Shown: positions 15,007-63,336, counted from the first letter of the stretch. The stretch: 64,000 nt of DNA from an uncultured Myxococcales bacterium (GCA_964385015.1 CAYLLS010000001.1:194339-258338); one strand, 5' to 3'. Translations and numbers: made by a program. Notes: generated from the sequence alone by a model not told the origin.

Positions 15007-16518
15007 ATGAAAAAAAATACATATAATGATGTAGAAGACAAATTGTTTCATCAGTTTAAAATTGATAATAAAGGATGTATTGATACTAAAGCGATATTAA
15101 ATAGTATTAAGAATGTTGGGATAAATACGTCTATTCATAAAATTGTTAGTATAATGCATAATATTAGTACAAATAAATTATCTTTTAATGATTTTGTTAA
15201 ATTAATTAATAAAAATAATAAATTTATCTTAAGACTTTTATCTAATGAATTAGCTATTAATAATTTTAGTGCTTTTGTAGATCAAATAACTGATATTTTT
15301 AATAATACTAAACATAATGATAGTGGAAAAGTGGCTGATTATATCCCACAATTAGCTAGAATTGATGCTGAAAAGTATGGTATCTCTATATGTAGTATTG
15401 ATGGACAAGAATTTTCAATTGGTGATGCTAATGAAGAATTTTGCGTTCAATCTTGTTCTAAACCAATTACTTATGGTTTAGCTATAGAAGAACATGGTCT
15501 AGATGTTGTACATAAATATGTTGGAAGAGAACCAAGTGGCAGAGGATTTAATGCTTTTGTATTGAATTATCATGGGTTACCTCATAATCCTATGATTAAT
15601 TCTGGATCTATTATGACTTCTTCTTTAATATGTCCTAATTTAAATAATGCAGATAGATTTGATTATATATTAAATATATGGAAAAGATTATCAGGTAATG
15701 GTAAAATTGGATTTGATAATCCTACTTATTTATCTGAAAAAGAAACAGCAGATAGAAATTTTGCATTAGCTTATTTTATGAATGAAAATAAAGCTTTCCC
15801 TAGTGGTGTTAATTTACAAGGAATATTAGATTTATATTTTCAAATGTGCTCTATTAGTATTAATACTAAATATTTTGCAAGAATTGCTGCTACTTTTGCT
15901 AATGGTGGAAGATGTCCTATCACTGATGATCAAGTATTTCAATCAGATACAATAAGAAGTTGTTTATCATTAATGTATTCTTGTGGAATGTATGATTATT
16001 CTGGAGAATTTGCTTTTAGATATGGTGTCCCTGCTAAAAGTGGAGTTTCTGGTGTTTTATTAGTTGTTATTCCTAATATTGTTGGTATATGTATTTGGTC
16101 TCCAAAATTAGATAGATTAGGGAATAGTGTTCGTGGGATAAAATTTGTAGAGAAATTAATAAAATCTTTTAATTATCATATTATGGATCAATTAGTGCCT
16201 AATTTGGGTGCTTTTTCTATTAAAAATAAAATGAATAATAAAATTGATTTGATGAATTTATATTATGCAGCAGCAAATGGGGATTTAAAAAATGTAAAAA
16301 TACTTGTAGCTAAAGGCGTAAATTTATCACAAAGTGATTATGATGGTAGAACTGCATTACATTTAGCTGCATCTGAAGGTCATTTGCATATAGTAGAATA
16401 TTTATTAAAAAATAATGTTGAAACCAATGTTATAGATAGATGGAATTCTACACCATTACAAGACGCAATTAGACATAAACATAACACAATTATTGATTTT
16501 TTAAAAAAATATAAATAA
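15007..16518 (+). CDS. glsA: Glutaminase with N-terminal EF-hand-like domain and C-terminal ankyrin repeats (animal GLS-like architecture)
   Basis: GKVADYIPQLA, catalytic QSCSKP, VGREPSG, PHNPMINSG, MYSCGMYDYSGEFAF, PAKSGVSG; ankyrin repeats AAANGDL, DYDGRTALHLAASEGH, DRWNSTPLQDA. Confidence 0.95.
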   Translation: MKKNTYNDVEDKLFHQFKIDNKGCIDTKAILNSIKNVGINTSIHKIVSIMHNISTNKLSFNDFVKLINKNNKFILRLLSNELAINNFSAFVDQITDIFNNTKHNDSGKVADYIPQLARIDAEKYGISICSIDGQEFSIGDANEEFCVQSCSKPITYGLAIEEHGLDVVHKYVGREPSGRGFNAFVLNYHGLPHNPMINSGSIMTSSLICPNLNNADRFDYILNIWKRLSGNGKIGFDNPTYLSEKETADRNFALAYFMNENKAFPSGVNLQGILDLYFQMCSISINTKYFARIAATFANGGRCPITDDQVFQSDTIRSCLSLMYSCGMYDYSGEFAFRYGVPAKSGVSGVLLVVIPNIVGICIWSPKLDRLGNSVRGIKFVEKLIKSFNYHIMDQLVPNLGAFSIKNKMNNKIDLMNLYYAAANGDLKNVKILVAKGVNLSQSDYDGRTALHLAASEGHLHIVEYLLKNNVETNVIDRWNSTPLQDAIRHKHNTIIDFLKKYK

Positions 16519-16542
16519 TCAATTTATTAGGAGTATATTATT

Positions 16543-17586
16543 ATGATGTCTCAAGTTGAATATATTTGGTTAGATGGAACTAGACCAACTAATATTAGAT
16601 GTAAAACAAGAATTTTATTTTTTAATGATAATAAGAAAATTAATTTAAGTTCTTTTCCTAATTGGGGATTTGATGGATCATCTACAAATCAAGCTGATGG
16701 TGTTAATTCTGATTTAATTTTAAAACCAGTGAGTTTTATTGCTGATCCTATTAAAGGCAAAAATAATTATTTAGTTTTAAATGAAGTTTATAATGTAGAT
16801 AATTCACCACATGATACTAATTCTCGATTTCAGTTAAGACAACAAATGGATAAATATGGTTCTATTTTAGATCCGTGGATTGGTTTTGAGCAAGAATATA
16901 CATTATTTAAAAATTCTAGACCATATGGATGGCCTGCCAATGGATATCCATCTCCTCAAGGTCCATTTTATTGTGGTATAGGAATAGATAAAACATGTGG
17001 CAGAGAAATTTCAGAAGAACATATTCAAACATGCTTAAATGCTGGTATTATGTTATTTGGTGCTAATGCAGAAGTTATGTTAGGTCAATGGGAATTTCAA
17101 ATAGGTTATCGTGGTAAATCTGATGAAAGTGCAGATCCATTAAATGTTTCAGATCATTTATGGTTTGCTAGATGGTTATTATTTAGAATTGCAGAAAAAT
17201 ATAATGTAGTAGTCAGTTTAGATAATAAACCAGTAATTGGAGATTGGAATGGTGCTGGTAATCATACAAATTTTTCTACAAAATATACAAGAAATATCAA
17301 GAATGGATGGAGTTATATTCAAAAATTAATTTTAGCTTTATCTAAAAGACATGAGGAACATATTGCTAATTACGGTGAAGGATTAGATAAGCGTTTAACT
17401 GGATTACATGAAACTTGTGATATCTCTACATTTAAATCTGGTAAAAGAGATAGAACAGTATCTGTTAGAATTCCTGATTCAGTATTTAAACAAAAATATG
17501 GTTATATTGAGGATAGAAGACCAGGAGCTAATTGTGATCCATATTTAGTAGCAGCACAATTAATTAAAACGGCTAAATCTATATAA
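16543..17586 (+). CDS. glnII: Glutamine synthetase type II (eukaryote-like GSII)
   Basis: 347 aa; EYIWLDG, WGFDGSST, GFEQEY, PQGPFYCG, NAEVMLGQWEFQIG, DWNGAGNHTNFST, RLTGLHET, GYIEDRRPGANCDPY; AGGAG RBS. Confidence 0.96.
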   Translation: MMSQVEYIWLDGTRPTNIRCKTRILFFNDNKKINLSSFPNWGFDGSSTNQADGVNSDLILKPVSFIADPIKGKNNYLVLNEVYNVDNSPHDTNSRFQLRQQMDKYGSILDPWIGFEQEYTLFKNSRPYGWPANGYPSPQGPFYCGIGIDKTCGREISEEHIQTCLNAGIMLFGANAEVMLGQWEFQIGYRGKSDESADPLNVSDHLWFARWLLFRIAEKYNVVVSLDNKPVIGDWNGAGNHTNFSTKYTRNIKNGWSYIQKLILALSKRHEEHIANYGEGLDKRLTGLHETCDISTFKSGKRDRTVSVRIPDSVFKQKYGYIEDRRPGANCDPYLVAAQLIKTAKSI

Positions 17587-17604: not shown

Positions 17605-18828
17605 GTGGAAATTAATCAAATTGATACTATGTGGGTAATGTTATCTAGTGCATTCGTTATGTTAATGATTCCTGGATTATCTTTTTTTTATGGTGGATTA
17701 ATTAGAAAAAAGAATGTTTTATCTACCATTTTACATAGTTTTGTATTATTGCTTGTAATATCTATTATTTGGTTTTTATTTGGATATTCTTTAGCATTTA
17801 GTCCTAATGGAAATAGTTTTATTGGTGATCTATATTTTGCTTGTTTTAAACATGTGACTTCTAAGCCTAGTCCATTATATGCATCAACTATACCACATCA
17901 ATTATTTGCTATATTTCAAATGATGTTTGCTTGTATTACTCCAGCATTAATTTCAGGTTCTTTTGCTGAAAGAAAAAAATTTATATCTTTCATAACTTTT
18001 TCTTCTTTGTGGTTAGTATGCGTTTATTGTCCTATAGCTCATTGGGTTTGGAGTGATAATGGATGGTTAGCTAATTTGGGTGCATTAGATTTTGCTGGTG
18101 GTTCTGTTGTACATATATCTTCAGGTGTTTCTGCTATAGTGTGTGCTTTTGTATTGGGAAATAGGTTAGATTTTAAAAAATCAAATATTGAACCACATAA
18201 TATACCATTAACTATGATAGGAGTAGCATTGTTATGGTTTGGATGGTTTGGCTTTAATGCTGGAAGTGCTTTATCAGTTAATAGTATAGCTGTGATTGCT
18301 TTTATTAATACACATATATCAGCTGCATCTGGTGGATGTATGTGGTTACTTTTAAGTGTTATAGTTAATAGAAATATTAAAGCTACTGGTATTGGTAATG
18401 GAGTTGTTGCTGGATTAGTTGCTATTACACCAGCTGCTGGTTTTGTAGATATGATGTCTTCAATGATTATAGGATGTGTTGGTTCTGGGTTATGTTATAT
18501 GTTTGTAGAACATTTTATTAGGAAACATATTGATGATAGTATAGATGTTTTTGGTATTCATGGCATAGGAGGCATTGTAGGAGCAATTTTAACTGGTGTA
18601 TTTGCTTCATTTTCGATAAATTCTAATGGATCAGATGGATTAATATATGGTAATATAAATTTAGTTTTAATTCAATTGTTTTCTATTAGTGTAGTATTTG
18701 TTTATGCTGGATTAATGTCTTTTGTATTATTATATATTGTAAATTTTGTTTTTGGATTAAGAGTTAGTGGAATAGAAGAAGATGGAGGATTAGATGTTAC
18801 TACGCATCATGAACAAGGATATAGATGA
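17605..18828 (+). CDS. amtB: Ammonium transporter (Amt family)
   Basis: FQMMFA, AHWVW, DFAGGSVVHISSG, WFGWFGFNAGS, GLVAITPAAG, DVFGIHGIGG (twin His intact); GAGG RBS before GTG start. Confidence 0.97.
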   Translation: MEINQIDTMWVMLSSAFVMLMIPGLSFFYGGLIRKKNVLSTILHSFVLLLVISIIWFLFGYSLAFSPNGNSFIGDLYFACFKHVTSKPSPLYASTIPHQLFAIFQMMFACITPALISGSFAERKKFISFITFSSLWLVCVYCPIAHWVWSDNGWLANLGALDFAGGSVVHISSGVSAIVCAFVLGNRLDFKKSNIEPHNIPLTMIGVALLWFGWFGFNAGSALSVNSIAVIAFINTHISAASGGCMWLLLSVIVNRNIKATGIGNGVVAGLVAITPAAGFVDMMSSMIIGCVGSGLCYMFVEHFIRKHIDDSIDVFGIHGIGGIVGAILTGVFASFSINSNGSDGLIYGNINLVLIQLFSISVVFVYAGLMSFVLLYIVNFVFGLRVSGIEEDGGLDVTTHHEQGYR

Positions 18829-18873: not shown

Positions 18874-20292
18874 TTAAAATTTTTCTAAATATCCAAGTAT
18901 AAACCACCAATAATTTCCAATAGATAACCATATTGTAATATAAAATATACTTAAAATTATGCCTGTTAACCACCATTCTTTCATTGTAATATAATTGGAG
19001 CCAAAATATACTGGAGCAGTTCCTGTTCCATAATGAGTTAAACATGCTGATAGAGAATTAAATGCTGCTAATGACATAATAGCAGAAAAATGATTTATGT
19101 CAGCATTAATTAATAAAATTAAAAACATTGGATATATAGAGCTCACCATTGCTGTGGCACTAGCAAAAAAATAATGTATATAAAAATATATTATAGTTAT
19201 TGTAATATATAATAAAATTTTATTATTAAATTGCAAATAATATGTAATAATATTGCCTAACCAATTAATTATATTATGTTCTTGCATTTGATCTGCTAGC
19301 ATTAATAATATACTAAACCATATTAATGTGTTCCATGCAGTTTTTTCTTCTATGAGATCGTTCCATTTTAATACTTTAGTTATAAGTAAAATTACAATAC
19401 CTGTAAGAGCAGATAATGTAGGTGATATACCTAGTATATTACCAAACATCCATAATAATAATACTAAAATAAATGTAAATAGCATAATTAATTGTTGTAG
19501 ATTAATAGTTTTCATATTTTGTATGTTGTTTTTAGTTATAGTTGGAATATTTGATATGTTTTTTATATGAATTGGAGATATATAATAAATGATTATAGGC
19601 ATTAGTAACATAGCTATTAAGCCAGGTATTAAATTGGCTAACATCCATTGTAACCATGATATTTTTATATTCATATTACTAGCAAAAGTAATTATTAATG
19701 GATTACTGGCAATTGCTGTTATAAACATAGTACTACTTATTAAATTAGAATGAAATGCTATTTTTATTAAAAATGCACTTATAATTTTGTTTTCTTTTTT
19801 ATTTTTATATGGCAATTTTTCTGTTAAAGCTTTAATGATAGGAAATATGATTCCTGCTCCACGTGCTGTATTGCTAGGTACAGCTGGTGCTAATAATAAA
19901 TCTGAAATTGCTAATCCATATGCTAATCCTAAGATGTTTTTACTAAATATATTTATAAAAAAATAAGCTAATTTATTGCCTAATTTAGTTACATTAAATC
20001 CTTTTGCAATAAAAAATGCGAACACTACCATCCATACAATAGGTTTAGAATAATTGCTTAAACAAACATTAATAGATATAGTATTTGTTAAACTTAAAAT
20101 TGTTATACAAGTTAATGTTATGCTTCCCATAGGTAATGGTTTTAAAATGATTGTTATAATAGTTATATTAAAAATAATTAATAGATGCCAACCTTGATTT
20201 GTTAATCCTTGTGGTGGTTTAGAATACCAAAAGAAAAGTCCAATTATACTTATTGCAATTAGTATAATTTTATTATTTAGTAATTTATGCAT
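18874..20292 (-). CDS. DASS-family anion/dicarboxylate transporter (2-oxoglutarate/malate translocator-like)
   Basis: PQGL..QGWHLL, PLPMG, APAVPSNTARGAGIIFPII, SSTMFITAIASNP, HYFFAS.TA, LTHYGTGTAPVYFGSNY...WW. Confidence 0.92.
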   Translation of the reverse strand: MHKLLNNKIILIAISIIGLFFWYSKPPQGLTNQGWHLLIIFNITIITIILKPLPMGSITLTCITILSLTNTISINVCLSNYSKPIVWMVVFAFFIAKGFNVTKLGNKLAYFFINIFSKNILGLAYGLAISDLLLAPAVPSNTARGAGIIFPIIKALTEKLPYKNKKENKIISAFLIKIAFHSNLISSTMFITAIASNPLIITFASNMNIKISWLQWMLANLIPGLIAMLLMPIIIYYISPIHIKNISNIPTITKNNIQNMKTINLQQLIMLFTFILVLLLWMFGNILGISPTLSALTGIVILLITKVLKWNDLIEEKTAWNTLIWFSILLMLADQMQEHNIINWLGNIITYYLQFNNKILLYITITIIYFYIHYFFASATAMVSSIYPMFLILLINADINHFSAIMSLAAFNSLSACLTHYGTGTAPVYFGSNYITMKEWWLTGIILSIFYITIWLSIGNYWWFILGYLEKF

Positions 20293-22718: not shown

Positions 22719-23282
22719 ATGTATATTATTGTTGGATTAGGGAATCCTGGTAAAAAATATTCTAATACTAAGCATAATATTGGATTTATGTGTATTGATA
22801 AATTTATTAAGTCTTCATGTAAATCTACTATATGTTATAATAAATTTTTTAGTATTTATTATAAAAATTATATAAACAATCACACATTACATATATTAAA
22901 GCCACAGGTATATATGAATTTATCTGGGATATCAGTATATAAAGCATCTTTTTTTTTAAAATCTAAAAATATTATTATTATTCATGATGATGTAAATACA
23001 CCACTTGGTACAATAAAAATAGATAATATTGGACATCATAATGGTCATAATGGCATTAAAAATATTATAAGTTATATTGGCTCAAATTTTATTAGAATTA
23101 AAATAGGAATAAGCACTCAATATAATAATCATCAAAAAAAATATGTTTTATCTAATTTTAATAATATAGATGCTAATGCATTAGACTTATTATTATTAGA
23201 TGTTATACGTATTATAAAACTTATTATAATTAATGGATTTTCATATGTTAAAAATTATGTTAATAATGGAATTAATATATGA
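22719..23282 (+). CDS. pth: Peptidyl-tRNA hydrolase
   Basis: IVGLGNPGKKYSNTKHNIGF, KPQVYMNLSG, IHDD, GHNGIK. Confidence 0.96.
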   Translation: MYIIVGLGNPGKKYSNTKHNIGFMCIDKFIKSSCKSTICYNKFFSIYYKNYINNHTLHILKPQVYMNLSGISVYKASFFLKSKNIIIIHDDVNTPLGTIKIDNIGHHNGHNGIKNIISYIGSNFIRIKIGISTQYNNHQKKYVLSNFNNIDANALDLLLLDVIRIIKLIIINGFSYVKNYVNNGINI

Positions 23283-23983
23283 TAAAAAATAGTCTTATAG
23301 ATAATGAATTTATGTTTTTTAAAGATAATATAGCTAAATTTATAGATCATACATTGTTAAAAATAGATGCAACATTACAAGAATTAAAACAACTATGTAA
23401 TGAGGCAAAACAATGGAATTTTCTTGGTGTATGTGTTAATTCAAGTAATATTTTATTAGTATCTAAGGAGTTATATGGTACTCAAATTATCCCTATTGCA
23501 GTAGTAGGATTTCCTTTGGGAGCATCAAGTACATTGTCTAAAGTAGTGGAAGCTAAAAATGCTATTAATGATGGTGCTAAAGAAATAGATATGGTTATAA
23601 ATATTGGTGCATTGAAATCAAAAAATTATACTACAGTTATGACTGATATATGTAGAGTAGTAAAGATTGCTCAACCATATCAAGTTAAAGTCATATTAGA
23701 GATGTCACAATTAAATTATAAAGAAAAAATTATTGCTTGTGCAATATCTAAAGCTAGTGGTGCATCTTTTATTAAAACATCTACAGGATTTAATGTGTCT
23801 GGAGCTACTATTGAAGATGTGTCTTTGATGAGAATGATAGTTGGATATGATATGGGAGTAAAAGCTTCTGGAGGAATTAAAACTAAAAATGATTTAATAA
23901 CAATGATTAAAGCAGGTGCCAATCGCATTGGAACATCTAAATCTTCATTGATTATGTTAGAAAATAATGATAGTAAGTATTAA
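23279..23983 (+). CDS. deoC: Deoxyribose-phosphate aldolase
   Basis: IDHTLLK, VVGFPLG, GAKEIDMVINIG, FIKTSTGF, GVKASGGI, RIGTS. Confidence 0.97.
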   Translation: MIKNSLIDNEFMFFKDNIAKFIDHTLLKIDATLQELKQLCNEAKQWNFLGVCVNSSNILLVSKELYGTQIIPIAVVGFPLGASSTLSKVVEAKNAINDGAKEIDMVINIGALKSKNYTTVMTDICRVVKIAQPYQVKVILEMSQLNYKEKIIACAISKASGASFIKTSTGFNVSGATIEDVSLMRMIVGYDMGVKASGGIKTKNDLITMIKAGANRIGTSKSSLIMLENNDSKY

Positions 23984-24008
23984 TGTTATAAAATTTTAGA
24001 GTATTTAT

Positions 24009-25313
24009 ATGCAAATTTATGGTTTAATTAAGAAAAAACGTGATGGTTATAGTTTAAACACTAAAGATATCAAATATTTTATTAAAAAATATACTGAAAA
24101 TAAAATTCCAGATTATCAAGCTTCAGCTTTAGCAATGGCAATTTTTTTTCAAGGTATGAATCATGATGAAATTCTTGCATTAACATATTCTATGTTGCAT
24201 TCTGGAAAAATTTTAAATTTTTCTCATTTAAATAGATGTGTCATAGATAAACACTCTACTGGAGGTGTTGGAGATAAAACTAGCATAGCATTAGTTCCTG
24301 CAGTTGCATCTTATGGTATTGGTGTTCCAATGATGTCTGGTGGTTCTTTAGGACATACTGGAGGTACTCTAGATAAATTGTCATCTATACCTAATTTGAA
24401 TACTAATATATCAATAAATAACATATATAAGTTAATTAAACAACATAGTTGTTGTTTTATTTCATCGACACAAGAAATAACCCCTGCTGATAAAAAATTT
24501 TATGCTTTAAGAGGTGTAACTGGGACAGTTGAATGTTTTTCATTAATTATGTCTTCTATAATGTCTAAAAAATTATCAGAAGGTATTAATGGTCTTGTAT
24601 TAGATGTCAAGTATGGATCTGGAGCTTTTATTGAAAATTATAAAGATGCTAAAAAATTTGCTTTATCTATTGTTAAAATGAATCATATTATTGGTAAAAA
24701 AATTATTGTTCGTTTAAGTGATATGTCGCAGCCATTAGGAAACATGATAGGTAATGCTTTAGAAATAGAAGAATCTATAGATATATTACATGGAAATGGA
24801 CCTAATGATTTAAAAAAACATATTTGTGAATTAGGTGGAGAAATGTTGTTTTTAGGCAATATAGTACAGTCTTTATGTGAAGGAAAAGCATTAATTAAAA
24901 AATCATTATTAAATGGAAATGCATTAGAAAAATTTGCTGAAATTATTTCTGCGCAAAATGGAAATTATAAAGTTATATTTAATAAAAAATTATTGCCACA
25001 AGCTAATAAAAAAATTCAATATTTATCTACACAATCTGGTTATTTAATTGGAATTAATACTAAACAAATAGGTATTGTTGTTTTATTATTGGGTGGTGGT
25101 AGACAGAAATTAAATGATAGAATAGATCCTAGAGTAGGATTGAAAATGCATGTCAAAATTGGAGATAAAATAATTAGGAAACAGATTTTATGTACAATAT
25201 TTTTAGGCGATAAAAATGCTGATGAGGCTTTATGTTTATTAAAAAAAAGCTTTTATTTTTCTAAAGAAAGTGTTTCTGCACCAAATTTATTTGGCATGCG
25301 TATAGTTGCTTAA
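24009..25313 (+). CDS. pdp: Pyrimidine-nucleoside/thymidine phosphorylase
   Basis: KKRDG, IPDYQ, DKHSTGGVGDK, GHTGGTLDKL, PADKKFYALR, SIMSKK, LDVKYGSGAF. Confidence 0.95.
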   Translation: MQIYGLIKKKRDGYSLNTKDIKYFIKKYTENKIPDYQASALAMAIFFQGMNHDEILALTYSMLHSGKILNFSHLNRCVIDKHSTGGVGDKTSIALVPAVASYGIGVPMMSGGSLGHTGGTLDKLSSIPNLNTNISINNIYKLIKQHSCCFISSTQEITPADKKFYALRGVTGTVECFSLIMSSIMSKKLSEGINGLVLDVKYGSGAFIENYKDAKKFALSIVKMNHIIGKKIIVRLSDMSQPLGNMIGNALEIEESIDILHGNGPNDLKKHICELGGEMLFLGNIVQSLCEGKALIKKSLLNGNALEKFAEIISAQNGNYKVIFNKKLLPQANKKIQYLSTQSGYLIGINTKQIGIVVLLLGGGRQKLNDRIDPRVGLKMHVKIGDKIIRKQILCTIFLGDKNADEALCLLKKSFYFSKESVSAPNLFGMRIVA

Positions 25314-25352
25314 TTATATGTTTGTTATCGTATATTTAGGATATATAAAAGA

Positions 25353-26777: not shown

Positions 26778-26801
26778 TACATATTATCAGGATTAATAAT
26801 T

Positions 26802-51461: not shown

Positions 51462-51653
51462 ATCTAGCTCCTTATATAATTCAAGAAAATTATATCTTGT
51501 ATATTATATTTTTATTTAATATATATGGTCATATATATTGAATAAAAATATTATCATGTTTATTTTTTTTTTAAAAAAGAAATTTTTCTATTGCAATGAT
51601 GATTTTCTTATGAGATATGTCTTTGTTTCAATTTTAATTTTATATGGTGAATT

Positions 51654-53105: not shown

Positions 53106-53173
53106 TTTTTTATATATTATAATGTATTTAACATGTTGTTTTTTTTTAACATTAATATATAATAACATATATT

Positions 53174-54829
53174 ATGTGTAAATATTTAGTCACAGCAGCT
53201 CTTCCATATGCTAATGGACCTATACATTTAGGACATTTAGTCGAACATATACAAGTAAGTATTTTTGTAAATGCTTTAAAAATGTATAAACATGATGTAT
53301 TATGTGTTTGTGGAACTGATGCACATGGTACAGCTATTGAAATTGAATCTAATAAAAACAAAATAACACCAGAAGTGTTTATTGATAAATATAGACAATT
53401 ACATGAGAAGAGCTTGTTGGCTTTTAATATTAAATATGATGGTGGTTATGGTAGCACGCATACGAAAAAAAATAAAAAAAATGTTATTAACATATTTAAT
53501 TTATTAAGACAAAAGAAACATATTATACAAAAAGATATAATACAATGGTTTGATCCAAAAGTACAAAGATTTTTATCTGATAGATTAATTTTAGGAACAT
53601 GTCCAAAATGTTATACTAATGATCAATATGGTGATAACTGTGAAAAATGCGGTTCTACATATAATTCTATAGAATTAATTCATCCAAAAAGTTTGCTTAG
53701 TAATATAAAACCTATTTTAAAACATAGTAAACATTATTTTCTTAAATTAAATGATAATGTTGATGAATTAAAAAAATGGATATTTGACATGAGTAATGCT
53801 GGATTACTGAATAAGGATATTAAAAAATTTTTAATAACTTGGTTTAAATATGATTTAAAAGATTGGGACATAAGTCGTGATGCACCTTATTTTGGTTTTA
53901 ATATACCTGATGCAATTAATAGTTATATTTATGTATGGTTTGATGCCACTATAGGCTATATTAGTTTAACTGAATTAGCTGCAAAAAACAAAAATCGTGA
54001 TATTAGTCATTATTGGAAAGGGAAAGATAAGAACACACAAATAATTCATTTTATAGGAAAAGATGTTATTTATTTTCATATGTTATTTTGGCCTTCAATT
54101 TTAATTGCCTGTAATTATTCATTGCCAACTTCTGTTGTAGTTCATGGAATGCTGACGATTAATCATAAAAAAATGTCAAAATCTAGAAATACTTTTATAT
54201 TAGCAGATGATTTTTTAAAACATTTGCCATCTGAAGCATTGAGATATTATTTTGGATCTAAATTAAATTTTAATATAGAAGATATTGATTTAAATTTTTA
54301 TGATTTGCAAACAAAAATAAATAAAGATTTAATAGATAAGATTATTAATATCATAAGTAGAACTATTAATATGTTGCATCTTTATAACAATGCTAAATAT
54401 GGTGATATGGAAAATACATCTCATGATATTATAAAATATGTAATAAAAATTACTAATAAAGTCAAAACTTACTACATGTCATATGAATATAATAAAGTAA
54501 TATATTATGTATTAAAAATAGCTGATATAACTAATGGTTATCTACAAAAAAATGAACCTTGGAAAAATATTAAAAATAATTTTGATAAAACAATAAAACA
54601 AATTACAACAGCATTATGGTGCGGAAAAGTTGCAATTGCATTACTAAAACCAATAATTCCTAAATTAGCAGATAAAACAAAATTATTATTAAATATTCAT
54701 GATATATGGGATTTTGATAATATTTTATATAAATTACCTAAAAATCAAACTGTACAAAAATATAAAATATTATTTAATAAAATTGACACTAATGATATAG
54801 AAGCATTATTAAATTTATATAAAATATAA
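53174..54829 (+). CDS. metG: Methionine--tRNA ligase (no C-terminal EMAP domain)
   Basis: ALPYANGPIHLGH, GTDAHG, Zn knuckle CPKC...CEKC, WDISRDAPYFG, YVWFDA, KMSKS. Confidence 0.97.
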   Translation: MCKYLVTAALPYANGPIHLGHLVEHIQVSIFVNALKMYKHDVLCVCGTDAHGTAIEIESNKNKITPEVFIDKYRQLHEKSLLAFNIKYDGGYGSTHTKKNKKNVINIFNLLRQKKHIIQKDIIQWFDPKVQRFLSDRLILGTCPKCYTNDQYGDNCEKCGSTYNSIELIHPKSLLSNIKPILKHSKHYFLKLNDNVDELKKWIFDMSNAGLLNKDIKKFLITWFKYDLKDWDISRDAPYFGFNIPDAINSYIYVWFDATIGYISLTELAAKNKNRDISHYWKGKDKNTQIIHFIGKDVIYFHMLFWPSILIACNYSLPTSVVVHGMLTINHKKMSKSRNTFILADDFLKHLPSEALRYYFGSKLNFNIEDIDLNFYDLQTKINKDLIDKIINIISRTINMLHLYNNAKYGDMENTSHDIIKYVIKITNKVKTYYMSYEYNKVIYYVLKIADITNGYLQKNEPWKNIKNNFDKTIKQITTALWCGKVAIALLKPIIPKLADKTKLLLNIHDIWDFDNILYKLPKNQTVQKYKILFNKIDTNDIEALLNLYKI

Positions 54830-54832
54830 ATA

Positions 54833-56017
54833 TTATAAAAACATTTTTGTATTTAATATATAGTATTTGTTTAAATTATTATCATAACGCATCATATGCA
54901 TAGAGTTTCTATATATATAAAATATGGTATTATTTTGATATAAATTGATATCAACTTTTTGTTCTAATATTCCGGAATTTTTATTTATTATGATAAGCTT
55001 TAATTGTTTTGTTATACAAAATATATGATGTTTATGATTTATACATACTATGCGTATTATATTATTAATGTTTTTTTTCCATATAAATTTGCCATTTTTA
55101 ATATTAATATTGATTAATGCGTTTGTTGTAGATATAAAAATAAAATTATCATTAATTAATATATTATTAATACGTTTAAGATAAATTTTCCATATTTTTA
55201 TTATGTTTTTAGATATCAGCAATAACCCTTTATTATAAGAAGAACTAATTATATTATAATTTTTATATTGTTGATGATTAAATATATCTGCAAATATTAT
55301 GTTTATATAACTAATATTTAATGTTTTAATTATTTGACCTGATTGTGCATTTATAAAATTAATATTACCATTTGCGTTTGGGCATGATAATATTTTCATA
55401 ATTTTATTATTTAAATAAATTTTACTTATAATTGGACCATAGGTTGGCATTAATATCATTTTAGAATGATTATATTTTTTTTTGAACCACAATATTTTTC
55501 CATGATGTATATGAATTGCATAAATTGTAGATAATTTAGATATTACATATAAAATATTATTATCATTATATATATGATTTAAAATGTTGGAATCTAATTT
55601 AATAATCCATTTAATACTACACGTATTAATATCAATATTTATTAAAAATTGATTTCTTATAGTTATAAGAATTTGTTTTTTAAATAAAATTGGAATATTT
55701 GTTATATTCTTAAATAATTTATATAATTTTAATAGACTATTATTGCAATGTTTAAACATATATATTGTTTTATTTTGTATAATAATTAATTTTTTATGTT
55801 TATAATATAATTTTAAATTAAAATTTTTATTATAATTTACTTTTTTTATATATAAATTAAAAATAAATTTTTTTTTATTTAAATCTAAATAAGATTTATT
55901 GTCTAAAACATATATGTATTTCATATTTAATATGCAAAACATTAATATTATATATAAAGTATACTTATAATTTATTTTAGATAAAAACATAATATCCAAT
56001 AAATCCTTATATATCAT
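54833..56017 (-). CDS. PQQ-like beta-propeller repeat protein (BamB-like), extremely eroded
   Basis: Repeated blade signatures IYAI...GKILW, INAQSGQI, INIKNGKFIW, INKNSG; nearly all N/K/I/Y elsewhere. Confidence 0.6.
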   Translation of the reverse strand: MIYKDLLDIMFLSKINYKYTLYIILMFCILNMKYIYVLDNKSYLDLNKKKFIFNLYIKKVNYNKNFNLKLYYKHKKLIIIQNKTIYMFKHCNNSLLKLYKLFKNITNIPILFKKQILITIRNQFLINIDINTCSIKWIIKLDSNILNHIYNDNNILYVISKLSTIYAIHIHHGKILWFKKKYNHSKMILMPTYGPIISKIYLNNKIMKILSCPNANGNINFINAQSGQIIKTLNISYINIIFADIFNHQQYKNYNIISSSYNKGLLLISKNIIKIWKIYLKRINNILINDNFIFISTTNALININIKNGKFIWKKNINNIIRIVCINHKHHIFCITKQLKLIIINKNSGILEQKVDINLYQNNTIFYIYRNSMHMMRYDNNLNKYYILNTKMFL

Positions 56018-56023
56018 ATAATC

Positions 56024-56586
56024 TTAAATAATTATATATTTACGTATTATATGTTGAATTAATAAAATAGTATTATTTATATTATTATTTTTAATAACAT
56101 AATAATATTTGTTATATCCTATTAATATTTCTTTTTGTGCTGCTAAAATTCTTTCGTTAATTTTTACATGAGATTCAGTATTCCTGTATAATAATCTTTT
56201 TTTTAATTCATTAAAAGATGGAGGCAAAATTAAAATTAATAAAGTATTTTCATTTTTTTTTTAATTTGTATTCCACCATCTATACTAATATCAAATATAA
56301 TATGATATCCTTTATTTAACATTTTATTAACCCAAATTATATCTGATCCATATTTATATTGATACATAATAGACCATTCTAAAAATCTTTTCCCTATTAT
56401 CATATGATTAAAGTTATTGTCTGAAATAAAATAATAATCTCTCTTATCAATTTCTTTTTTACGATGTCTTCTAGTTGTATAACTAATGCTTTGTATAATA
56501 TTATTATACATATTTGTAATTAATCTAGATAAAGTTGATTTGCCTACGCCACTTGGGCCACTTAATATGATAGGTATGCCTTTCAT
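56024..56586 (-). CDS. gmk: Guanylate kinase split by a one-base frameshift in an A10 tract (56253-56262)
   Basis: 5' part GPSGVGKST, SYTTR, DYYF, FLEW, YGS; 3' part LILPPSFNELKKRL..R.TE...RI..A..E; adding one A joins them as QIKKKNENTLLILILPPS. Confidence 0.92.
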
Positions 56587-56653
56587 TGCAATCCTTTATA
56601 TATATTTAATTTATTGTTTTCTATACATAAATAATAAAATTTATATGATGATT

Positions 56654-57073
56654 TTAAAATATTTCATTATCTGTAAAAAAAAAATTGATTTCTTTTTTAG
56701 CATTGTGAACTGAATCTGATCCATGAATAATATTTTTTATTAAAGATGAAGCATAAGTTCTTCGTATAGTACCATATGAAGCATCAATATAATTTGTTGA
56801 TCCTATTAATTCTCTATGCTTTTGAATTACATTTTTACTTTGCAATACTAAAATTAAAATAGGCATGGAAGATATAAAATTGATTAATTCCAGAAAAAAT
56901 TTTTTTTCCTTATGCATAGAATAAAATAATTTTGCTTCTGAAGTGCTTAAATGTTTCATTTTAGCTGCAACAATAGAAAAATTATTTATTTCAAAACAAC
57001 TTATTATGTTACCAATAATTTTTTTTTTTATACCATCAGGTTTAATAATAGATAATGTTCTCTCGTTATTCAT
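56654..57073 (-). CDS. ndk: Nucleoside-diphosphate kinase
   Basis: ERTLSIIKPDG, FY..H..K.FF, GTIR, IHGSDS. Confidence 0.96.
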   Translation of the reverse strand: MNNERTLSIIKPDGIKKKIIGNIISCFEINNFSIVAAKMKHLSTSEAKLFYSMHKEKKFFLELINFISSMPILILVLQSKNVIQKHRELIGSTNYIDASYGTIRRTYASSLIKNIIHGSDSVHNAKKEINFFFTDNEIF

Positions 57074-57086
57074 AGAATATAATTCC

Positions 57087-58526
57087 TTATAAATTATTAA
57101 TATATTTTAATGCTACTTCAATTCTATAACAACATCTATATTTCCCTAAAATTAAAATCACAGGAAATAAAGGAGGAGTTGTTGTTGTCCCAGTTAAAAT
57201 TAGCCGCATAGTCATAAATAATGTTTTTTTTGATAGTTTATATATTTGACAACAACTATTAAAACAATATTTTATATTATACATATTAAATTCTGACCAT
57301 GTTTGCATTGTTTCTAATATTTGATTTAATATATTAATAGTATCATTTAAATTATTATTAATTAAACATAATTTATAGTTAATATTTAAATTATCAACAA
57401 AAAAATAATTAGTATAATTAATAAAATCTTCTATAGTATGCATTCGATATTTAACTAATGGTATAATTTGATTTAAATATGATTGTGATAAAATATTATT
57501 AAGCAAATATTTTGTAATTTGTTTATTAGTATATATGTTATGAATATATTGCTTATTTAACCACAATAACTTTTTAATATCAAATATTGGACCTCCTAAA
57601 GCAATTTTTTTTAATGAAAAATTATTAACAAAATATTTGAGATTAAAAATTTGTTTATTATCAATAAATGAAAAAGCCATTAAGCCTAAAAAATTTACCA
57701 TTACTTCTGGTAATATGCCTAAATGTTTATAATAAAAAATAGATGTTGGATTAATACTTTTTGATACTTTACTTCTATCATGATTTCGCAATAAAGGCAA
57801 ATGACAAAAATATGGTATTTTAAAATTCAAAAATTTATATAACAATACATGTTTAGGTGTAGAGCTAATCCATTCTTCTCCTCTAATAACATGTGTAATA
57901 TTCATTAAGTGATCATCTATTACATTAGCTAAATGATATGTTGGGAATCCATCATTTTTTAATAGAATTTGATCATCTAATTTATTATTATAAATACTTA
58001 TAGGACCTCTTAATATATCATAAAATATAGTTTTACCTATATTTGGTACTTTTAAACGAATCACTCCTAATGCACCATTAGAAATTTCATTATAAACATC
58101 AATATGAGATCTATATCTACAATATCCATCATATTTACTTGGTTGATTTGATTTTTGTTGTTTTAATTTTAATTTAGCTAATCTATTATATGAGCAACTA
58201 CACCAGTAAGCTTTATTTAATTTAATTAAATAATGTGCATATTTTTGATAAATATGTATTCTATTACTTTGTTGATATAACTTTGAATTGATATTTACGC
58301 CATCATCCCATGTCAACCCTAACCATATTAACGATTTTATAATGTTATATATACTATTATGCACTATATTCTTTTGATTGGTATCCTCTATGCGAAATAC
58401 AAATTTGCCATTATATTTCTTGGCAAAAGCATAATTGATAAGAGCTACATATCCAGTTCCTACATGAGGATCTCCTGTGGGAGATGGACCTATTCGTACT
58501 TTCACATCTTTATATTGATTTATCAT
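57087..58526 (-). CDS. gltX: Glutamate--tRNA ligase
   Basis: RIGPSPTGDPHVG, RIEDT, PTYHLANVIDDH, HVIRGEEW, KVSKS. Confidence 0.96.
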   Translation of the reverse strand: MINQYKDVKVRIGPSPTGDPHVGTGYVALINYAFAKKYNGKFVFRIEDTNQKNIVHNSIYNIIKSLIWLGLTWDDGVNINSKLYQQSNRIHIYQKYAHYLIKLNKAYWCSCSYNRLAKLKLKQQKSNQPSKYDGYCRYRSHIDVYNEISNGALGVIRLKVPNIGKTIFYDILRGPISIYNNKLDDQILLKNDGFPTYHLANVIDDHLMNITHVIRGEEWISSTPKHVLLYKFLNFKIPYFCHLPLLRNHDRSKVSKSINPTSIFYYKHLGILPEVMVNFLGLMAFSFIDNKQIFNLKYFVNNFSLKKIALGGPIFDIKKLLWLNKQYIHNIYTNKQITKYLLNNILSQSYLNQIIPLVKYRMHTIEDFINYTNYFFVDNLNINYKLCLINNNLNDTINILNQILETMQTWSEFNMYNIKYCFNSCCQIYKLSKKTLFMTMRLILTGTTTTPPLFPVILILGKYRCCYRIEVALKYINNL

Positions 58527-58552
58527 TCATCTTTTTTCTTTTTTAATTTATA

Positions 58553-59437
58553 TTATGTACCATATGTTAATAAAACTTTTTTTGTAATTAATCCAATATC
58601 AGATGGAGTATCCACTAATTTAATACCTGCATCTTTAAAGGCTAATTTTTTGCATAATGCAGTCCCTTCGCCCTTTGCAATAATAGCACCTGCATGGCCC
58701 ATTCTCTTATTAGAAGGCGCAGTCTCTCCAGCTATAAAACCTATTACTGGTTTTTTCATGTTGTCTTTTATCCATAAAGCAGCATTTTCTTCGGCATTTC
58801 CTCCAATTTCTCCTATTATTACCACTGCTTTAGTATCATCATCATTATTAAATTTTTCTAATATATCTATAAAGTTTGTTCCAAGAATAGCATCACCACC
58901 TATACCAACACATGTAGATTGACCTATATTTAAATTAGTTAATTGATGAACTGCTTCGTAAGTTAATGTCCCGGATCTAGAAACAACACCTACATTGCCT
59001 TTTTTATGTATATATCCTGGCATAATACCAATTTTACATTCATTAGGTGTAATAATTCCAGGGCAATTAGGACCAATTAATCTTGTATTACTAGATTTTA
59101 GTAATTTTATAACTTTTATCATATCTATAGTTGGAATCCCTTCAGTAATGCACACTATTAATTCTAATTTAGCTTCAATGCTTTCTATAATTGCATCTGC
59201 TGCTAGTGCAGCTGGTACATATATAATAGAAACATTAGCATTAGTTTCATCAATAGCATCACGTACTGAATTAAAAATAGGAATTTGATTATTAAATAAT
59301 TGTTTTTCTTTACCTGGTGTAATGCCACCTACAATATTAGTTTTATATTGCAACATTTGTAATGTATGAAAAGATCCAGATAATCCAGTAATCCCTTGTA
59401 CTAATACTCTAGTTGAAGAATCAATTAAAATACTCAT
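58553..59437 (-). CDS. sucD: Succinate--CoA ligase alpha subunit
   Basis: [41 protein letters not shown] (phospho-His). Confidence 0.98.
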
Positions 59438-60597
59438 TATATCCTCGATGCTTTAACTGCTTTTAATGCTCCATCAAGCATATTATCTGCAGTAATAATA
59501 TTTAATTTAGAATTATTTAACATTTGTTTTGCTATTTTGCTATTTGTTCCCTCTAGTCTTACAATAAGTGGAATATTTATATTTAAATCTTTACTAGCCG
59601 AAATAACTCCATTTGCAATAGTGTCACATTTAGCTATGCCACCAAAAACATTAATAAATATAACTTTTACATTCTTATCTTGCATAATTAATTTTAAAGC
59701 CTGAGTAACTTTTAAAATAGTAGTGCTCCCTCCAACATCTAAAAAATTAGCTGGATTACCACCAACATATTTTATAATATCCATTGTAGCCATAGCTAAT
59801 CCAGCACCATTTACCATACATCCGATATTGCCATTTAAAGCAACATAGCTTATATCATATTTATGAGCTAATACTTCTTTATTATCATATTGTTTTGGAT
59901 CATACATATTTAAAATATTTGATTGTCTAAATAAAGCATTATCATCAATATTAAATTTAGCATCCAAAGCAATAAGTTCATTATTTTTTGTTACAATTAA
60001 AGGATTAATTTCAGCTAAACTTAAATCTAATACTATAAACATATTATATAAATTATAACATAATTCATGCATTGATTTTGAAATATTTTTATGTAATTTT
60101 AATTTTGAAAGAAAAAATCTTATTTGAAATGGCATTAATCCAATATTTGGATTAATCCATTGTTTTAATAGTTTATGTGGTTTTTCAATAGCAGTTTTTT
60201 CTATGTCTACTCCACCTTCATCTGACATAATAAGACAAATTTTTTGTTGTTCTCTATCTATAGTTAATCCAATATAAAACTCTCTAATCACATCACATAA
60301 CTCTTCTATCATAATCATGTTAACTAATTGACCATCAGAATTAGTTTGATGTGTAACTAATTTTTTATTCAATATTTGTTGATAATAGTTGATTACATCT
60401 TGTTTATTATGAGCTATTTTAATTCCTCCTACTTTACCACGTCCACCTGCATAAATTTGAGCTTTTAATATACATGGATATTTTATTTGTTTAGCAGCTT
60501 TTAACATTTCTTCTAAATTAAAACAAATATGATGATGTAAAATGTTTATTTTATGCTGTTTCAATATTTGTTTCGCTTGAAATTCATGTATTTTCAT
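59437..60597 (-). CDS. sucC: Succinate--CoA ligase beta subunit
   Basis: [52 protein letters not shown]. Confidence 0.98.
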
Positions 60598-60717
60598 AAA
60601 TTCATTCCTATGTATAATTAATATATGGTATTATACTAAAAAAAATATATATTACAATCTATTCTAAATAAATTATATTAAAATAGATGACTTTAACAAT
60701 AATATTATGGTCATATA

Positions 60718-61026
60718 ATGAAATTAAGAATTACAAGAGATAATATACGTTTTAGATTAAATCATTTTGATAAAATAATGTTAAAACGAGATAAATATAT
60801 ACAAGAACATATATTAATTGGATATAAAAAATATCACACATTTTATTTTACGTTAAAAATTAATATCAAATTTAATATAATGTTTAATGAAAACAACATT
60901 TATGTAACTATACCACATCATATGATTAAAAATCTCTATACATATGATTTTTATAGTATTAAAAAAAAAATCAAGTTTATAAAACAAAGATTTTTGATCA
61001 TTATAGAAAATGATTTTATAAAATAA
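60718..61026 (+). CDS. Conserved hypothetical protein
   Basis: MKLRI..DNIRFRL N-terminus and IIEND(F) C-terminus resemble a widespread uncharacterised family (MKxRIxxNSxRxRL...EKDF). Confidence 0.6.
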   Translation: MKLRITRDNIRFRLNHFDKIMLKRDKYIQEHILIGYKKYHTFYFTLKINIKFNIMFNENNIYVTIPHHMIKNLYTYDFYSIKKKIKFIKQRFLIIIENDFIK

Positions 61027-61041: not shown

Positions 61042-61926
61042 TTATCTTATATATTTTTTTACATATTCATAAATTTCTTTAGATTTATATGAGCTTCTCA
61101 TAAAAAAATGTGCAAATATACCTTGTAATCCTATTTTTTGTCCAAATTTAATCCAATTATGATATTGATTTAACATGATATAATTTTGTATTGGCCAATT
61201 TTTTAAACTTGGACGTAAATATTGTCCAATAATAACAATATTAACTCCATTTTTTTTTAAATAATATATACTTTCTTTTACTTCATCATTTGATTCTCCT
61301 AAGCCAACCATAAGACTACTTTTAATAAGTATATTTTTTTTTTTAGATGCTTTTTTTAATAATATACACGTATGTTCTAAATTAGATTGTGGACGTAATT
61401 TCTGAAATAAACTAAAAACTGTTTCTATATTATGACTTAATACATGAGGATTAGCTTGTAATATATAATCTATAAAATATAAATCACCATTAAAATCTGG
61501 GATCAAGATTTCTATAATAACATTAGGAAAAAATTTTTTAATTGCATTAATACATTTAATAAATTGATTAGCTCCATAATCTAATAAATCATCACGATTT
61601 ACACTTGTAATAACTATATAATTTAAATTCATATTTTTAATAGCATTTAAAACTTGAATATATTCATACTTATAAATAATATTTGCTTTTTTTGTTTGAA
61701 TAGAGCAAAAATTACATGTTCTAGTGCATTTGTCTCCTAAAATCATTAATGTTGCAGTATTTTTAGAAAAACATTCACCAATATTTATACAATGAGCATC
61801 TTCGCACACAGTATTTAAACTTAATTTTCGCAAAATATTTAATGTTTTATATTTTTTTTGTATGGTATATATATTTTTTTTTAAATATTTTGGCAATCTT
61901 AATTTATTATTTAATGTTTTATACAT
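61042..61926 (-). CDS. lipA: Lipoyl synthase
   Basis: TVCEDAHCINIGEC, CTRTCNFC, ITSVNRDDL, HNIETV, KSSLMVGLGE, GQYLRP, RSSY. Confidence 0.97.
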   Translation of the reverse strand: MYKTLNNKLRLPKYLKKNIYTIQKKYKTLNILRKLSLNTVCEDAHCINIGECFSKNTATLMILGDKCTRTCNFCSIQTKKANIIYKYEYIQVLNAIKNMNLNYIVITSVNRDDLLDYGANQFIKCINAIKKFFPNVIIEILIPDFNGDLYFIDYILQANPHVLSHNIETVFSLFQKLRPQSNLEHTCILLKKASKKKNILIKSSLMVGLGESNDEVKESIYYLKKNGVNIVIIGQYLRPSLKNWPIQNYIMLNQYHNWIKFGQKIGLQGIFAHFFMRSSYKSKEIYEYVKKYIR

Positions 61927-61929
61927 AAT

Positions 61930-63336
61930 TTATTTTTTATTAATAATTTTAAGTTCATTATTTCTAATGGATTGAGCAGAATATGGAAACCATCCTACAA
62001 AAAATTTAGATAATAGTATACATATAACAAATAATATCATTAAAATTAATGCTGGCAATAAAATTATATTATTAGCTACTAAAGTTGGCAAAAATGCTAC
62101 GATAATTAATTCTATAAAAGAAATGCCTATATATGCTATGCCAAAATCTTCAACAATTCTTGCTCTCATATTAGGATCAACAACTCTTAACAGAACAATA
62201 GATGTAGCAATAGATCCTGTATTCCATCCATACATCATTAATGATCTTTCAAACCAAAAGTTTTTATATATTTTTCTTCCTATAAACCACATTAAACAAA
62301 TTGTTACCATAGTGCCAAATCCAAATAAAAGTATTAATGGAAATATAAATTTTTCAATTACATTTAAAGTAATAGATGCTATTCCGAAAGCTATTAAATA
62401 ATCAGTAATTAAAGAACCTATTCTATTAATAAAATGTTGATCAATATATTCACCAAATTGCAATATATTAAAAATTTGTTGGAATATTCCACCTAAAATT
62501 AAAGCAATGCAAAATCCTGGTATATGATATGCATTCGGAAATATATTTTTTAATAAATCACTAATATAAAAAGCAAATACAGCAATTCCTAAAACTATAG
62601 CAAAATGCCAAGTAATAGAATCTAATGCAATAGGATTAACAGTTTCTTTACCTACAAATATTCTTTCTTTTTCAGGGATAAACCCAGTTTTAATGCTTTC
62701 AGGCATTTTATGCATAGATTTAACTATTCTAGACCATCCTAAGCGAATCCCTATATTAATAATAAACATGCCACCTAAAACACCTATTAATACTCCTATA
62801 GTAGCAGACGTATATCCTATTGATAAAGCTCCTATAAATCCATTATCTTCTAAAATTCCTGCAATAGCTGCTGCAGTGCCATGACCACCTATAAAACCAG
62901 CAGGTAATAATAATGCAAAAGCACAATGTAAATCTGGAAAAATAGGAGTTAAAATAAATAAACCAAAAAGAAGAGCAAAACCATATTGTCCAACTAATGA
63001 TGCTAAATTAAAAAATAATGTATCACCTACATCAGTTAAAATTTTATTAAAAGATATCTTATTTTTTCTTTTTCCTAAAAACAAAGTAGCAAAAAAAAAT
63101 ACAACTAAGACTGATGGATACTTCACTATATTTTGAATCTCATGAGGATTACCACTAAATGGCAAAATATCTAGAAATTGTGAACCACATATTAAAGCCA
63201 ATATGCCTGCAATAACTGCACTTGGCATATATGTATATTGTAAAAATTTTATGCGTGAACGTAATAATTGCGATATAATTATAAGAATTGATATAATCCC
63301 AAAATCTACAAGAACATCTCTATAGAGAGAGCTCAC
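61930..63336 (-). CDS. gltS: Sodium/glutamate symporter (GltS/ESS family)
   Basis: P.AVIAG, GFIGGHGTAAA, SATIGV..G..GG, G..TG...T...LLRVVDP; AAAGGAGG RBS before GTG start. Confidence 0.85.
   Translation of the reverse strand: MSSLYRDVLVDFGIISILIIISQLLRSRIKFLQYTYMPSAVIAGILALICGSQFLDILPFSGNPHEIQNIVKYPSVLVVFFFATLFLGKRKNKISFNKILTDVGDTLFFNLASLVGQYGFALLFGLFILTPIFPDLHCAFALLLPAGFIGGHGTAAAIAGILEDNGFIGALSIGYTSATIGVLIGVLGGMFIINIGIRLGWSRIVKSMHKMPESIKTGFIPEKERIFVGKETVNPIALDSITWHFAIVLGIAVFAFYISDLLKNIFPNAYHIPGFCIALILGGIFQQIFNILQFGEYIDQHFINRIGSLITDYLIAFGIASITLNVIEKFIFPLILLFGFGTMVTICLMWFIGRKIYKNFWFERSLMMYGWNTGSIATSIVLLRVVDPNMRARIVEDFGIAYIGISFIELIIVAFLPTLVANNIILLPALILMILFVICILLSKFFVGWFPYSAQSIRNNELKIINKK

Follow-up and report, generated by a model that had tools for sequence, protein, structure and literature searches.

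Does a 48-kb stretch of a reduced bacterial genome hold a module that turns host glutamine into ATP and trades that ATP with the host? The question arises from positions 15007-63336 of a 64,000-base piece of DNA from an uncultured Myxococcales bacterium (GCA_964385015.1, CAYLLS010000001.1:194339-258338), which was analysed whole and is referred to here as the window. A reading made from this DNA alone (the sequence-only reading) had grouped nine genes, those for glutaminase, the ammonium transporter Amt, a GltS glutamate symporter, a DASS dicarboxylate transporter, lipoyl synthase (LipA), succinyl-CoA synthetase (SucCD), succinyl-CoA:3-oxoacid CoA-transferase (SCOT), nucleoside diphosphate kinase (Ndk) and an NTT ATP/ADP translocase, as a dispersed mitochondrion-like glutaminolysis and ATP-exchange module. 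All nine genes are where that reading had placed them; GltS was identified through its homologues and at the family level only, the others by Pfam and NCBIfam scans. We find that these genes are scattered parts of a genome-wide, host-fed respiratory way of life and not one module. Our best reading, to which we give a probability of roughly 0.55, is that of a reduced, self-respiring intracellular symbiont resembling Rickettsia and Chlamydia, with scattered host-fed energy genes and a TLC-family transporter that is likeliest to be a net importer of ATP.

The window corresponds to C1:194339-258338 of a genome totalling 561,909 bases on two contigs (C1, 529,272 bases, and C2, 32,637 bases), with a G+C content of about 24 % for the genome and 20-30 % within the window, which is densely coding. 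We scanned 50 open reading frames (ORFs) of the window against Pfam and rescanned ten of these against NCBIfam. The genome was searched with Pfam families, with E. coli K-12 proteins by phmmer and tblastn and, for candidates, by NCBIfam scans; these E. coli queries covered the genome DNA and all 638 ORFs with a length of 80 aa or more. Cut-off denotes throughout the curated NCBIfam score, and the Pfam threshold is the gathering score.

The range from glutaminase to GltS holds about 45 ORFs that, apart from the genes named above, are housekeeping genes. About 35 of these stand between the named genes, including ligA (DNA ligase), pth, five aminoacyl-tRNA synthetase genes, the suf operon, tatC and the genes for TruA, signal peptidase and BamB. 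Within the range, the genes strictly concerned with energy (DASS, SCOT, TLC, sucCD and lipA) cover about 15 % of the length, compared with 13.6 % for energy genes genome-wide by our own gene list, so that finding them together is what chance would produce, with no enrichment, in a stretch that represents roughly a tenth of a genome of about 500 genes. The only truly adjacent sets are sucCD-(DUF7009)-lipA-gltS and glsA-glnII-amt, the members of the latter being 25 and 19 bases apart. The arrangement does not bear out a module, and the sequence-only reading had also overlooked a GlnII gene at 16543-17586 and a nucleoside-catabolism cluster at 23279-27644.

It had further suggested that the organism may be more than an energy parasite, an idea that would fall if the rest of the genome had neither sucAB or a 2-oxoglutarate oxidoreductase nor an ATP-generating chain. 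The genome does not refute the idea in this way, and this part of the proposal stands: the genome-wide search recovered KorAB, a full tricarboxylic acid (TCA) cycle, Na+-NQR, succinate dehydrogenase (SDH), a caa3 oxidase, NarGHI and F1Fo ATP synthase. KorAB, a 2-oxoacid:ferredoxin oxidoreductase, lies at C1:476672-479593 (KorA 575 bits, cut-off 483; KorB 255 bits, cut-off 262), and we infer that it takes 2-oxoglutarate as its substrate. A mitochondrial-type aconitase (949 bits), an NADP-dependent isocitrate dehydrogenase (643 bits), citrate synthase (431 bits), malate dehydrogenase (428 bits) and a type-B SdhCAB (SdhA 1083, SdhB 397 and SdhC 156 bits) all score above their NCBIfam cut-offs, and FumC was identified solely by comparison with E. 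coli FumC (507 bits). SucD and SucC, the ADP-forming succinyl-CoA synthetase, are encoded in the window at 58553-60597 on the minus strand (Pfam; phmmer against E. coli SucC and SucD, 368 and 363 bits; SucC in NF001913, 498 bits, cut-off 370). From this gene content the TCA cycle is predicted to be complete, with KorAB in place of 2-oxoglutarate dehydrogenase and SucCD following it.

The respiratory chain is encoded in similar detail. Na+-NQR is complete (nqrA-F), with NqrF at 557 bits and nqrA-E adjoining. CoxA of the terminal oxidase scores 667 bits (cut-off 671) and CoxB 174 bits (cut-off 148), the latter carrying a CuA motif and, at its C terminus, a CxxCH haem-c site. A bo3 quinol oxidase, suggested by matches to E. 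coli Cyo, was rejected on the NCBIfam results and the CuA and haem-c motifs, which indicate a caa3 cytochrome c oxidase. NarG, NarH and NarI match their E. coli counterparts at 1165, 565 and 77 bits (locus C1:31333-37973), and moaACDE is present; an alternative complex III considered at C1:26967-36536 was likewise rejected, as NarG and NarH account for the large ORFs of that region. By family membership, Na+-NQR and the type-B SDH would feed either the caa3 oxidase or NarGHI. F1Fo ATP synthase is encoded at two loci (C1:6172-8070 and 39868-43961), and a V-type ATPase (C1:174228-181645) is kept alongside this split F-type enzyme. Lower glycolysis is present (gapA, pgk, eno and pykF). The E. coli queries found none of 13 Nuo subunits, CydAB, AceE, AckA or Pta by phmmer or tblastn, nor a class II fructose-bisphosphate aldolase anywhere in the genome.

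A few features of this chain stand apart. At its C terminus NqrA (C1:448946-450298) has an RnfC-like 4Fe-4S dicluster domain, and one may speculate that it could take electrons from ferredoxin reduced by KorAB. Four very divergent COX1-like ORFs (C1:451880-462928 and C1:27703-29109; Pfam COX1 200, 160, 42 and 30 bits) are accompanied by a COX2-like ORF of 187 aa, dihaem cytochromes c and a cytochrome b/4Fe-4S fusion protein; the COX1-like proteins may be NO-reductase-like. COX1 matches in the tiny relatives G005 and G010 are confined to scores in the 200-bit range. A homologue of NarG was seen in none of 12 relatives of the same family and in two of eight of the same order, at 72 % identity.

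The fuel for this machinery would come from the host. Family membership points to a capacity to import dicarboxylates (through the DiT-type DASS), glutamate (ESS-like protein) and nucleosides (CNT), and likewise to a complex of the pyruvate dehydrogenase/branched-chain 2-oxoacid dehydrogenase (PDH/BCKDH) type alongside leucine dehydrogenase, and to SCOT alongside thiolases. The DASS protein (18874-20292, minus strand; Pfam Na_sulph_symp 396 bits; TIGR00785 331 bits, cut-off 199) is of the plastid DiT type, with chloroplast DiT1 (333 bits) and DiT2.1 (312 bits) as its best matches of solved structure, suggesting that 2-oxoglutarate probably enters the cell directly. The plastid DiT1/DiT2 pair works with glutamine synthetase and glutamate synthase (GS/GOGAT); the likeness does not extend to this setting, as GOGAT is absent here (no GltB match). 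We propose that most of the 2-oxoglutarate would come in through DASS, with malate as the counter-substrate, and would not derive from glutamine. Direct import followed by KorAB, SucCD, SDH and fumarase, and export of the resulting malate, would be a simpler route than one from glutamine, and each imported 2-oxoglutarate would give rise to respiratory ATP in addition to one ATP at the SucCD step. KorAB, SDH, Nar, aconitase and LipA would receive their iron-sulphur clusters from the suf operon of the window. The earlier suggestion that ATP is generated from host keto acids is thus supported by KorAB, the TCA cycle, the respiratory chain and the ATP synthase.

The protein described as an NTT ATP/ADP translocase, here TLC-1 (51654-53105, plus strand, 483 aa), is a divergent member of the TLC/NTT family (PF03219, TC 2.A.12). 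It scores 92.4 bits in Pfam TLC against a gathering score of 21, with residues 3-457 aligned to profile positions 8-488 of 491, and a Kyte-Doolittle scan, a rough method, gives 12 hydrophobic segments. The family assignment is therefore sound, but the canonical exchanger type is not confirmed: TLC-1 reaches 87.1 bits in TIGR00769, the test for NTP/NDP exchangers, for a cut-off of 387.2, and 58 bits against PDB 9j3n, "ADP,ATP carrier protein 1". Conserved charged residues are critical in Arabidopsis NTT1, a point also cited in PMC7969357 (legend of Extended Data Fig. 9). The closest listed homologues of TLC-1 (82-60 % identity) come without organism names; among the nine listed with one, seven are Dependentiae, TM6 or Babeliales, at 50-57 % identity, and the remaining two both come from a single metagenome-assembled genome (MAG) labelled Epsilonproteobacteria.

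The family to which the genome belongs comprises ankyrin-repeat-rich genomes of 1.1-3.4 Mb and two other tiny ones, and nine of 12 of these relatives carry full canonical TLCs (Pfam 515-626 bits compared with 88 here). Among the others, G010 has two fragments, G002 a weak match and G005 none. TLC-1 is only 24-29 % identical to the TLCs of three of the four relatives searched, the fourth, G005, giving no match. The Pfam search did not find the canonical TLC of the relatives in this genome, which has only TLC-1 and TLC-2, a TLC-like protein of 400 aa at C1:319267-320469 that is conserved across the family. The presence of canonical TLCs in nine of 12 relatives makes an NTT-using intracellular ancestry plausible, and the pattern of matches suggests that this NTT-bearing intracellular lineage has replaced its own carrier by a foreign TLC, with Dependentiae as the apparent source of the type.

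Whatever its origin, the divergent transporter would exchange or import nucleotides, and net import of ATP when host ATP is plentiful would be its likeliest mode, as in Rickettsia and Chlamydia. Those bacteria combine Tlc1 or Npt1 with their own oxidative phosphorylation, and Chlamydia also has Na+-NQR, a V-ATPase and a DASS dicarboxylate transporter. The present genome shares with both the pairing of a TLC-family transporter with its own respiratory ATP synthesis, and with Chlamydia the Na+-NQR, V-type ATPase and DiT-like DASS. It differs from both in its non-canonical TLC, its complete TCA cycle via KorAB, its combination of NarGHI with a caa3 oxidase and a genome of about half the size.

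Export of ATP from symbiont to host is possible. Gradients, not sequence, decide which way an exchanger runs, and export cannot be read from the sequence. The alternative that survives best, which we nevertheless consider unlikely, is built on export: a respiratory endosymbiont that oxidises host dicarboxylates with O2 or nitrate and sends ATP out through the TLC protein, which would make it a functional counterpart of Ca. Azoamicus and Ca. Azosocius from a lineage not related to theirs. Excerpts of PMC7969357 and PMC11549363 describe these Azoamicaceae as respiratory endosymbionts of ciliates and list among their genes nar, moa, suf, mdh, korAB, sucCD, a transporter of the 2-oxoglutarate/malate type, tlcA and ATP synthase. 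As far as those excerpts go, and in the sense of gene content, the present reduced genome holds the whole functional kit (nar, moa, suf, mdh, korAB, sucCD, ATP synthase and tlc); the DASS protein is of the same kind as the 2-oxoglutarate/malate transporter of Ca. Azoamicus in the excerpt of PMC7969357. The presence of tlc alongside a respiratory chain and ATP synthase in a genome that has been reduced, the loss of the canonical NTT of nine of 12 relatives while a foreign TLC is kept, and the share of about 13.6 % of 562 kb given to energy genes are all in line with an ATP supplier, as is the persistence of nosZ-type genes in the tiny family members G005 (312 kb) and G010.

The parallel weakens on several points. 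There is no sign that any host is without respiration, and G005 has no TLC match. The genome is nearly twice the size of those of the Azoamicaceae (562 kb vs roughly 290-375 kb), belongs to a different lineage, has Na+-NQR in place of complex I and carries another type of TLC. Domain searches found no nirK-, nirS- or nosZ-type domains in it. Many catabolic routes that would serve the symbiont itself are kept (pyrimidines, leucine, acetoacetate and lower glycolysis). One version of ATP export would make the organism a mitochondrion-like respiratory endosymbiont of independent, Myxococcota-affiliated origin. Having shed the canonical NTT of its lineage, it would feed host 2-oxoglutarate and malate into a TCA cycle built on KorAB, respire O2 or nitrate and supply a marine protist with ATP via a TLC carrier of the Dependentiae type; we put this forward as a tentative and rather unlikely scenario.

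Mitochondrion-like glutaminolysis, in which imported glutamine and glutamate would be the main fuel and pass through 2-oxoglutarate and succinyl-CoA to succinate and ATP, was the core of the sequence-only reading and now appears improbable. Part of the route is there: glutaminase, the ESS-like candidate for a glutamate symporter, KorAB and SucCD are all encoded. The glutaminase (glutaminase A, 15007-16518, plus strand, 503 aa) scores 363 bits in Pfam Glutaminase and has C-terminal ankyrin repeats (Ank_2 and others). By contrast, SucA was not found by phmmer or by tblastn against the genome, and no dedicated enzyme leads from glutamate to 2-oxoglutarate. The E. coli queries found no GdhA, AspC, AlaA, IlvE or GltB in the whole genome; SufS is the only class I/II aminotransferase match in the genome by Pfam family search, and no class IV aminotransferase was found. 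The sole ELFV gene was rejected as a glutamate dehydrogenase (GDH), as it matches leucine dehydrogenases at 421 bits vs 72 bits for glutamate dehydrogenases, and a large NAD-GDH is excluded by the absence of any ORF longer than 1377 aa.

Nor is the missing SucA made good by the single lipoate-dependent complex, which has its E2, LipB, Lpd and first LipA at C1:58632-62813 and its E1 at C1:286139-288190. The only E1 is of the fused alpha-beta PDH/BCKDH type and the E2 is best matched by PDH E2; by these matches the complex is not a 2-oxoglutarate dehydrogenase. The only enzyme that could link glutamate and 2-oxoglutarate is a class-III aminotransferase (C1:314404-315735; 174 bits against E. coli GabT), which speaks for glutaminolysis to the extent that it could interconvert the two. 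Its place inside a pyrimidine-degradation cluster, with a CoA-acylating malonate/methylmalonate-semialdehyde dehydrogenase (MMSDH), an amidase, dihydropyrimidinase and an NCS1 permease (PreT/PreA being encoded elsewhere), argues that it would run towards glutamate and use up 2-oxoglutarate.

The neighbours of glutaminase also point away from the TCA cycle. Between it and the ammonium transporter Amt (17605-18828, plus strand; Pfam 405 bits; TIGR00836 437 bits, cut-off 343) sits a GlnII-type glutamine synthetase (16543-17586, plus strand, 347 aa), with 428 bits in NCBIfam gln_syn_GlnII for a cut-off of 500 and weak Pfam matches to Gln-synt_C and Gln-synt_N. Full-length homologues of the glutaminase occur in two of 20 family relatives, at 56 % and 47 % identity, and in both of these (G027 and G011) the glnII-glsA(-amt) linkage recurs with another gene order. 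Because GlnII flanks glutaminase and the linkage is conserved, we read the trio as a node of glutamine, glutamate and ammonium metabolism rather than as an entry to the TCA cycle. From family membership, the glsA-glnII-amt unit looks like one that interconverts glutamine, glutamate and ammonium; it would keep nitrogen in balance, provide glutamine and remove the ammonia released when leucine and pyrimidines are broken down. A eukaryotic origin of the glutaminase, suspected from its ankyrin tail, was rejected: the glutaminase-ankyrin architecture is widespread among bacteria, and named matches include Planctomycetota, Myxococcota and cyanobacteria.

The glutamate symporter candidate at the other end of the range (61930-63336, minus strand, 468 aa) is a divergent ESS (GltS-like) protein labelled through the annotation of its homologues. 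It has no Pfam or NCBIfam match itself, even at E<=1, and BLASTP against E. coli GltS gives E=0.013, with 22 % identity over 269 aa and a common GGHGT stretch. By our own count PF03616 is present in 93 of its 119 listed non-self homologues (42-70 % identity), several of which are named ESS glutamate:Na+ symporter, and a GltS-like label seems acceptable at the family level. Taken together, glutamine as a fuel route is doubtful.

Class II and class III NTTs import nucleotides or cofactors as building blocks. That TLC-1 does the same (with NTPs or NAD+) and takes no part in ATP trade in either direction would suit its great distance from the characterised ATP/ADP carriers, the ability of the genome to make its own ATP and the failure of the E. 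coli PyrG query to find a CTP synthase genome-wide, by which some nucleotides must be imported, but we hold it to be the least probable of the alternatives, since the CNT transporter and phosphorylases already provide nucleosides and the homologues of TLC-1 are the main TLC proteins of Dependentiae, which are described in an excerpt of PMC4776705 as being without a TCA cycle and an electron transport chain and must bring in ATP through some such carrier. The present genome resembles theirs in this transporter (of the TLC/Npt family, at the identities given above) and differs, judged by that excerpt, in having both a TCA cycle and an electron transport chain.

Several observations weigh against our reading of a self-respiring symbiont that imports ATP. 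The genome is 87.66 % complete by marker count, and all statements of absence are provisional at this level (87.7 %). GlnII falls below its curated cut-off, and KorB and CoxA fall just under theirs. The only cytochrome b in the genome is the odd fusion protein, and the substrate specificity of KorAB, its ferredoxin partner and the link from quinol to cytochrome c lack a firm assignment. TLC-1, being far under the exchanger cut-off, may carry cargo other than ATP and ADP, and our literature search found no paper with transport, structural or biochemical data for its type. The loss of the canonical TLC fits poorly with a simple continuation of energy parasitism, and an ATP-supplying symbiont would show the same retention of energy metabolism.

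The phylum of the organism is not settled, but its RpoB indicates that it is not a gammaproteobacterium: identity is 54-59 % to named Myxococcota or "Deltaproteobacteria" records (80 loci) and 50.8 % to E. coli. Within the family, identity is 61-62 % to three relatives and 50-51 % to G005; RpoB of another relative, G012, is 68.5 % identical to that of a Myxococcota-labelled MAG and 56.7 % to that of E. coli. The TLC matches had raised the possibility of a member of the Dependentiae, which was rejected since same-order relatives reach 7.7 Mb and RpoB points elsewhere. Of the tiny relatives, G005 (311,843 bases, one contig) and G010 carry nosZ-type propeller domains, and G005 has in addition a NirK-like copper-oxidase domain.

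A parallel case is offered by RS3 and XS4, marine Fastidiosibacteraceae that live as reduced symbionts and obtained an ADP:ATP antiporter by horizontal transfer; PMC12213064 reads them as energy parasites. According to the same source they are Gammaproteobacteria without denitrification genes, in which half of the TCA cycle, or the whole of it, has been lost. A genome of about half a megabase, a marine protist setting, a foreign TLC gene and the keeping of respiration genes are shared with the organism described here, but it is not the same organism: we rejected a reduced member of the Fastidiosibacteraceae (PMC12213064) on an RpoB nearer to Myxococcota, a full TCA cycle and NarGHI. A search of the literature found no published NTT endosymbiont of the Myxococcota type.

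The remaining genes of the window fit a host-fed life of this kind without forming part of a unit. The nucleoside cluster (23279-27644, plus strand; Pfam) encodes DeoC, pyrimidine-nucleoside phosphorylase, a CNT transporter and purine-nucleoside phosphorylase, and is in its context a further fuel route. The CNT transporter scores 286 bits in the nupC family (cut-off 442), with the match ending at profile position 301 of 401; its ORF (25353-26474) is followed by a gap of 327 bases (26475-26801) and may be truncated or frameshifted. Elsewhere in the genome reductive pyrimidine catabolism appears complete (C1:310645-317188 and C1:467701-470257), with genes for the NCS1 permease, PreT/PreA, dihydropyrimidinase, carbamoyl-amidase, the class-III aminotransferase and MMSDH. 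Together with the phosphorylases and DeoC of the window, this pathway suggests that host nucleosides could be used as fuel.

SCOT subunits A and B are encoded at 44933-46362 on the plus strand (TIGR02429 213 bits, cut-off 128.5; TIGR02428 307 bits, cut-off 243.6), and two thiolases and an AtoE-like transporter are found outside the window range in the same genome. The suf operon (33448-39636, minus strand; Pfam) comprises SufT-like, SufU, SufS, SufD, SufC and SufB genes and an Rrf2 regulator. Ndk lies at 56654-57073 on the minus strand (Pfam NDK 162 bits). The guanylate kinase ORF (56236-56586), of only 116 aa, matches positions 4-112 of a 182-position profile, is followed by about 220 bases of non-coding sequence and may be broken or shortened. 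The lipoyl synthase of the window (61042-61926, minus strand; NF004019 315 bits, cut-off 203) is a second copy near sucCD, and the presence of two such genes in 562 kb, the other being at C1:58632-59510 (370 bits) beside E2-LipB-Lpd, is of note. The RNA genes of the window are a one-piece tmRNA and one tRNA. Metatranscriptome run X3 contained 0.53, and run X4 0.36, of the words sampled from window positions 51000-60900, figures that apply to this range as a whole and not to single genes; both runs belong to the study from which the DNA itself probably stems. The second contig has a G+C content of 28.5 % vs 24.1 % and includes 100 N.

Symbionts that combine a nucleotide transporter with full respiration straddle the boundary between an energy parasite and an energy-giving organelle, and the Azoamicaceae are the only bacterial family so far argued to be energy-giving. 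The same functional kit is present here in an unrelated lineage, coupled to a different type of TLC; the carrier is unusual, and the respiratory kit is unusually complete for a genome of this size. Should the organism be only a self-respiring parasite, it would still be a compact example of how much catabolism fits into 562 kb.

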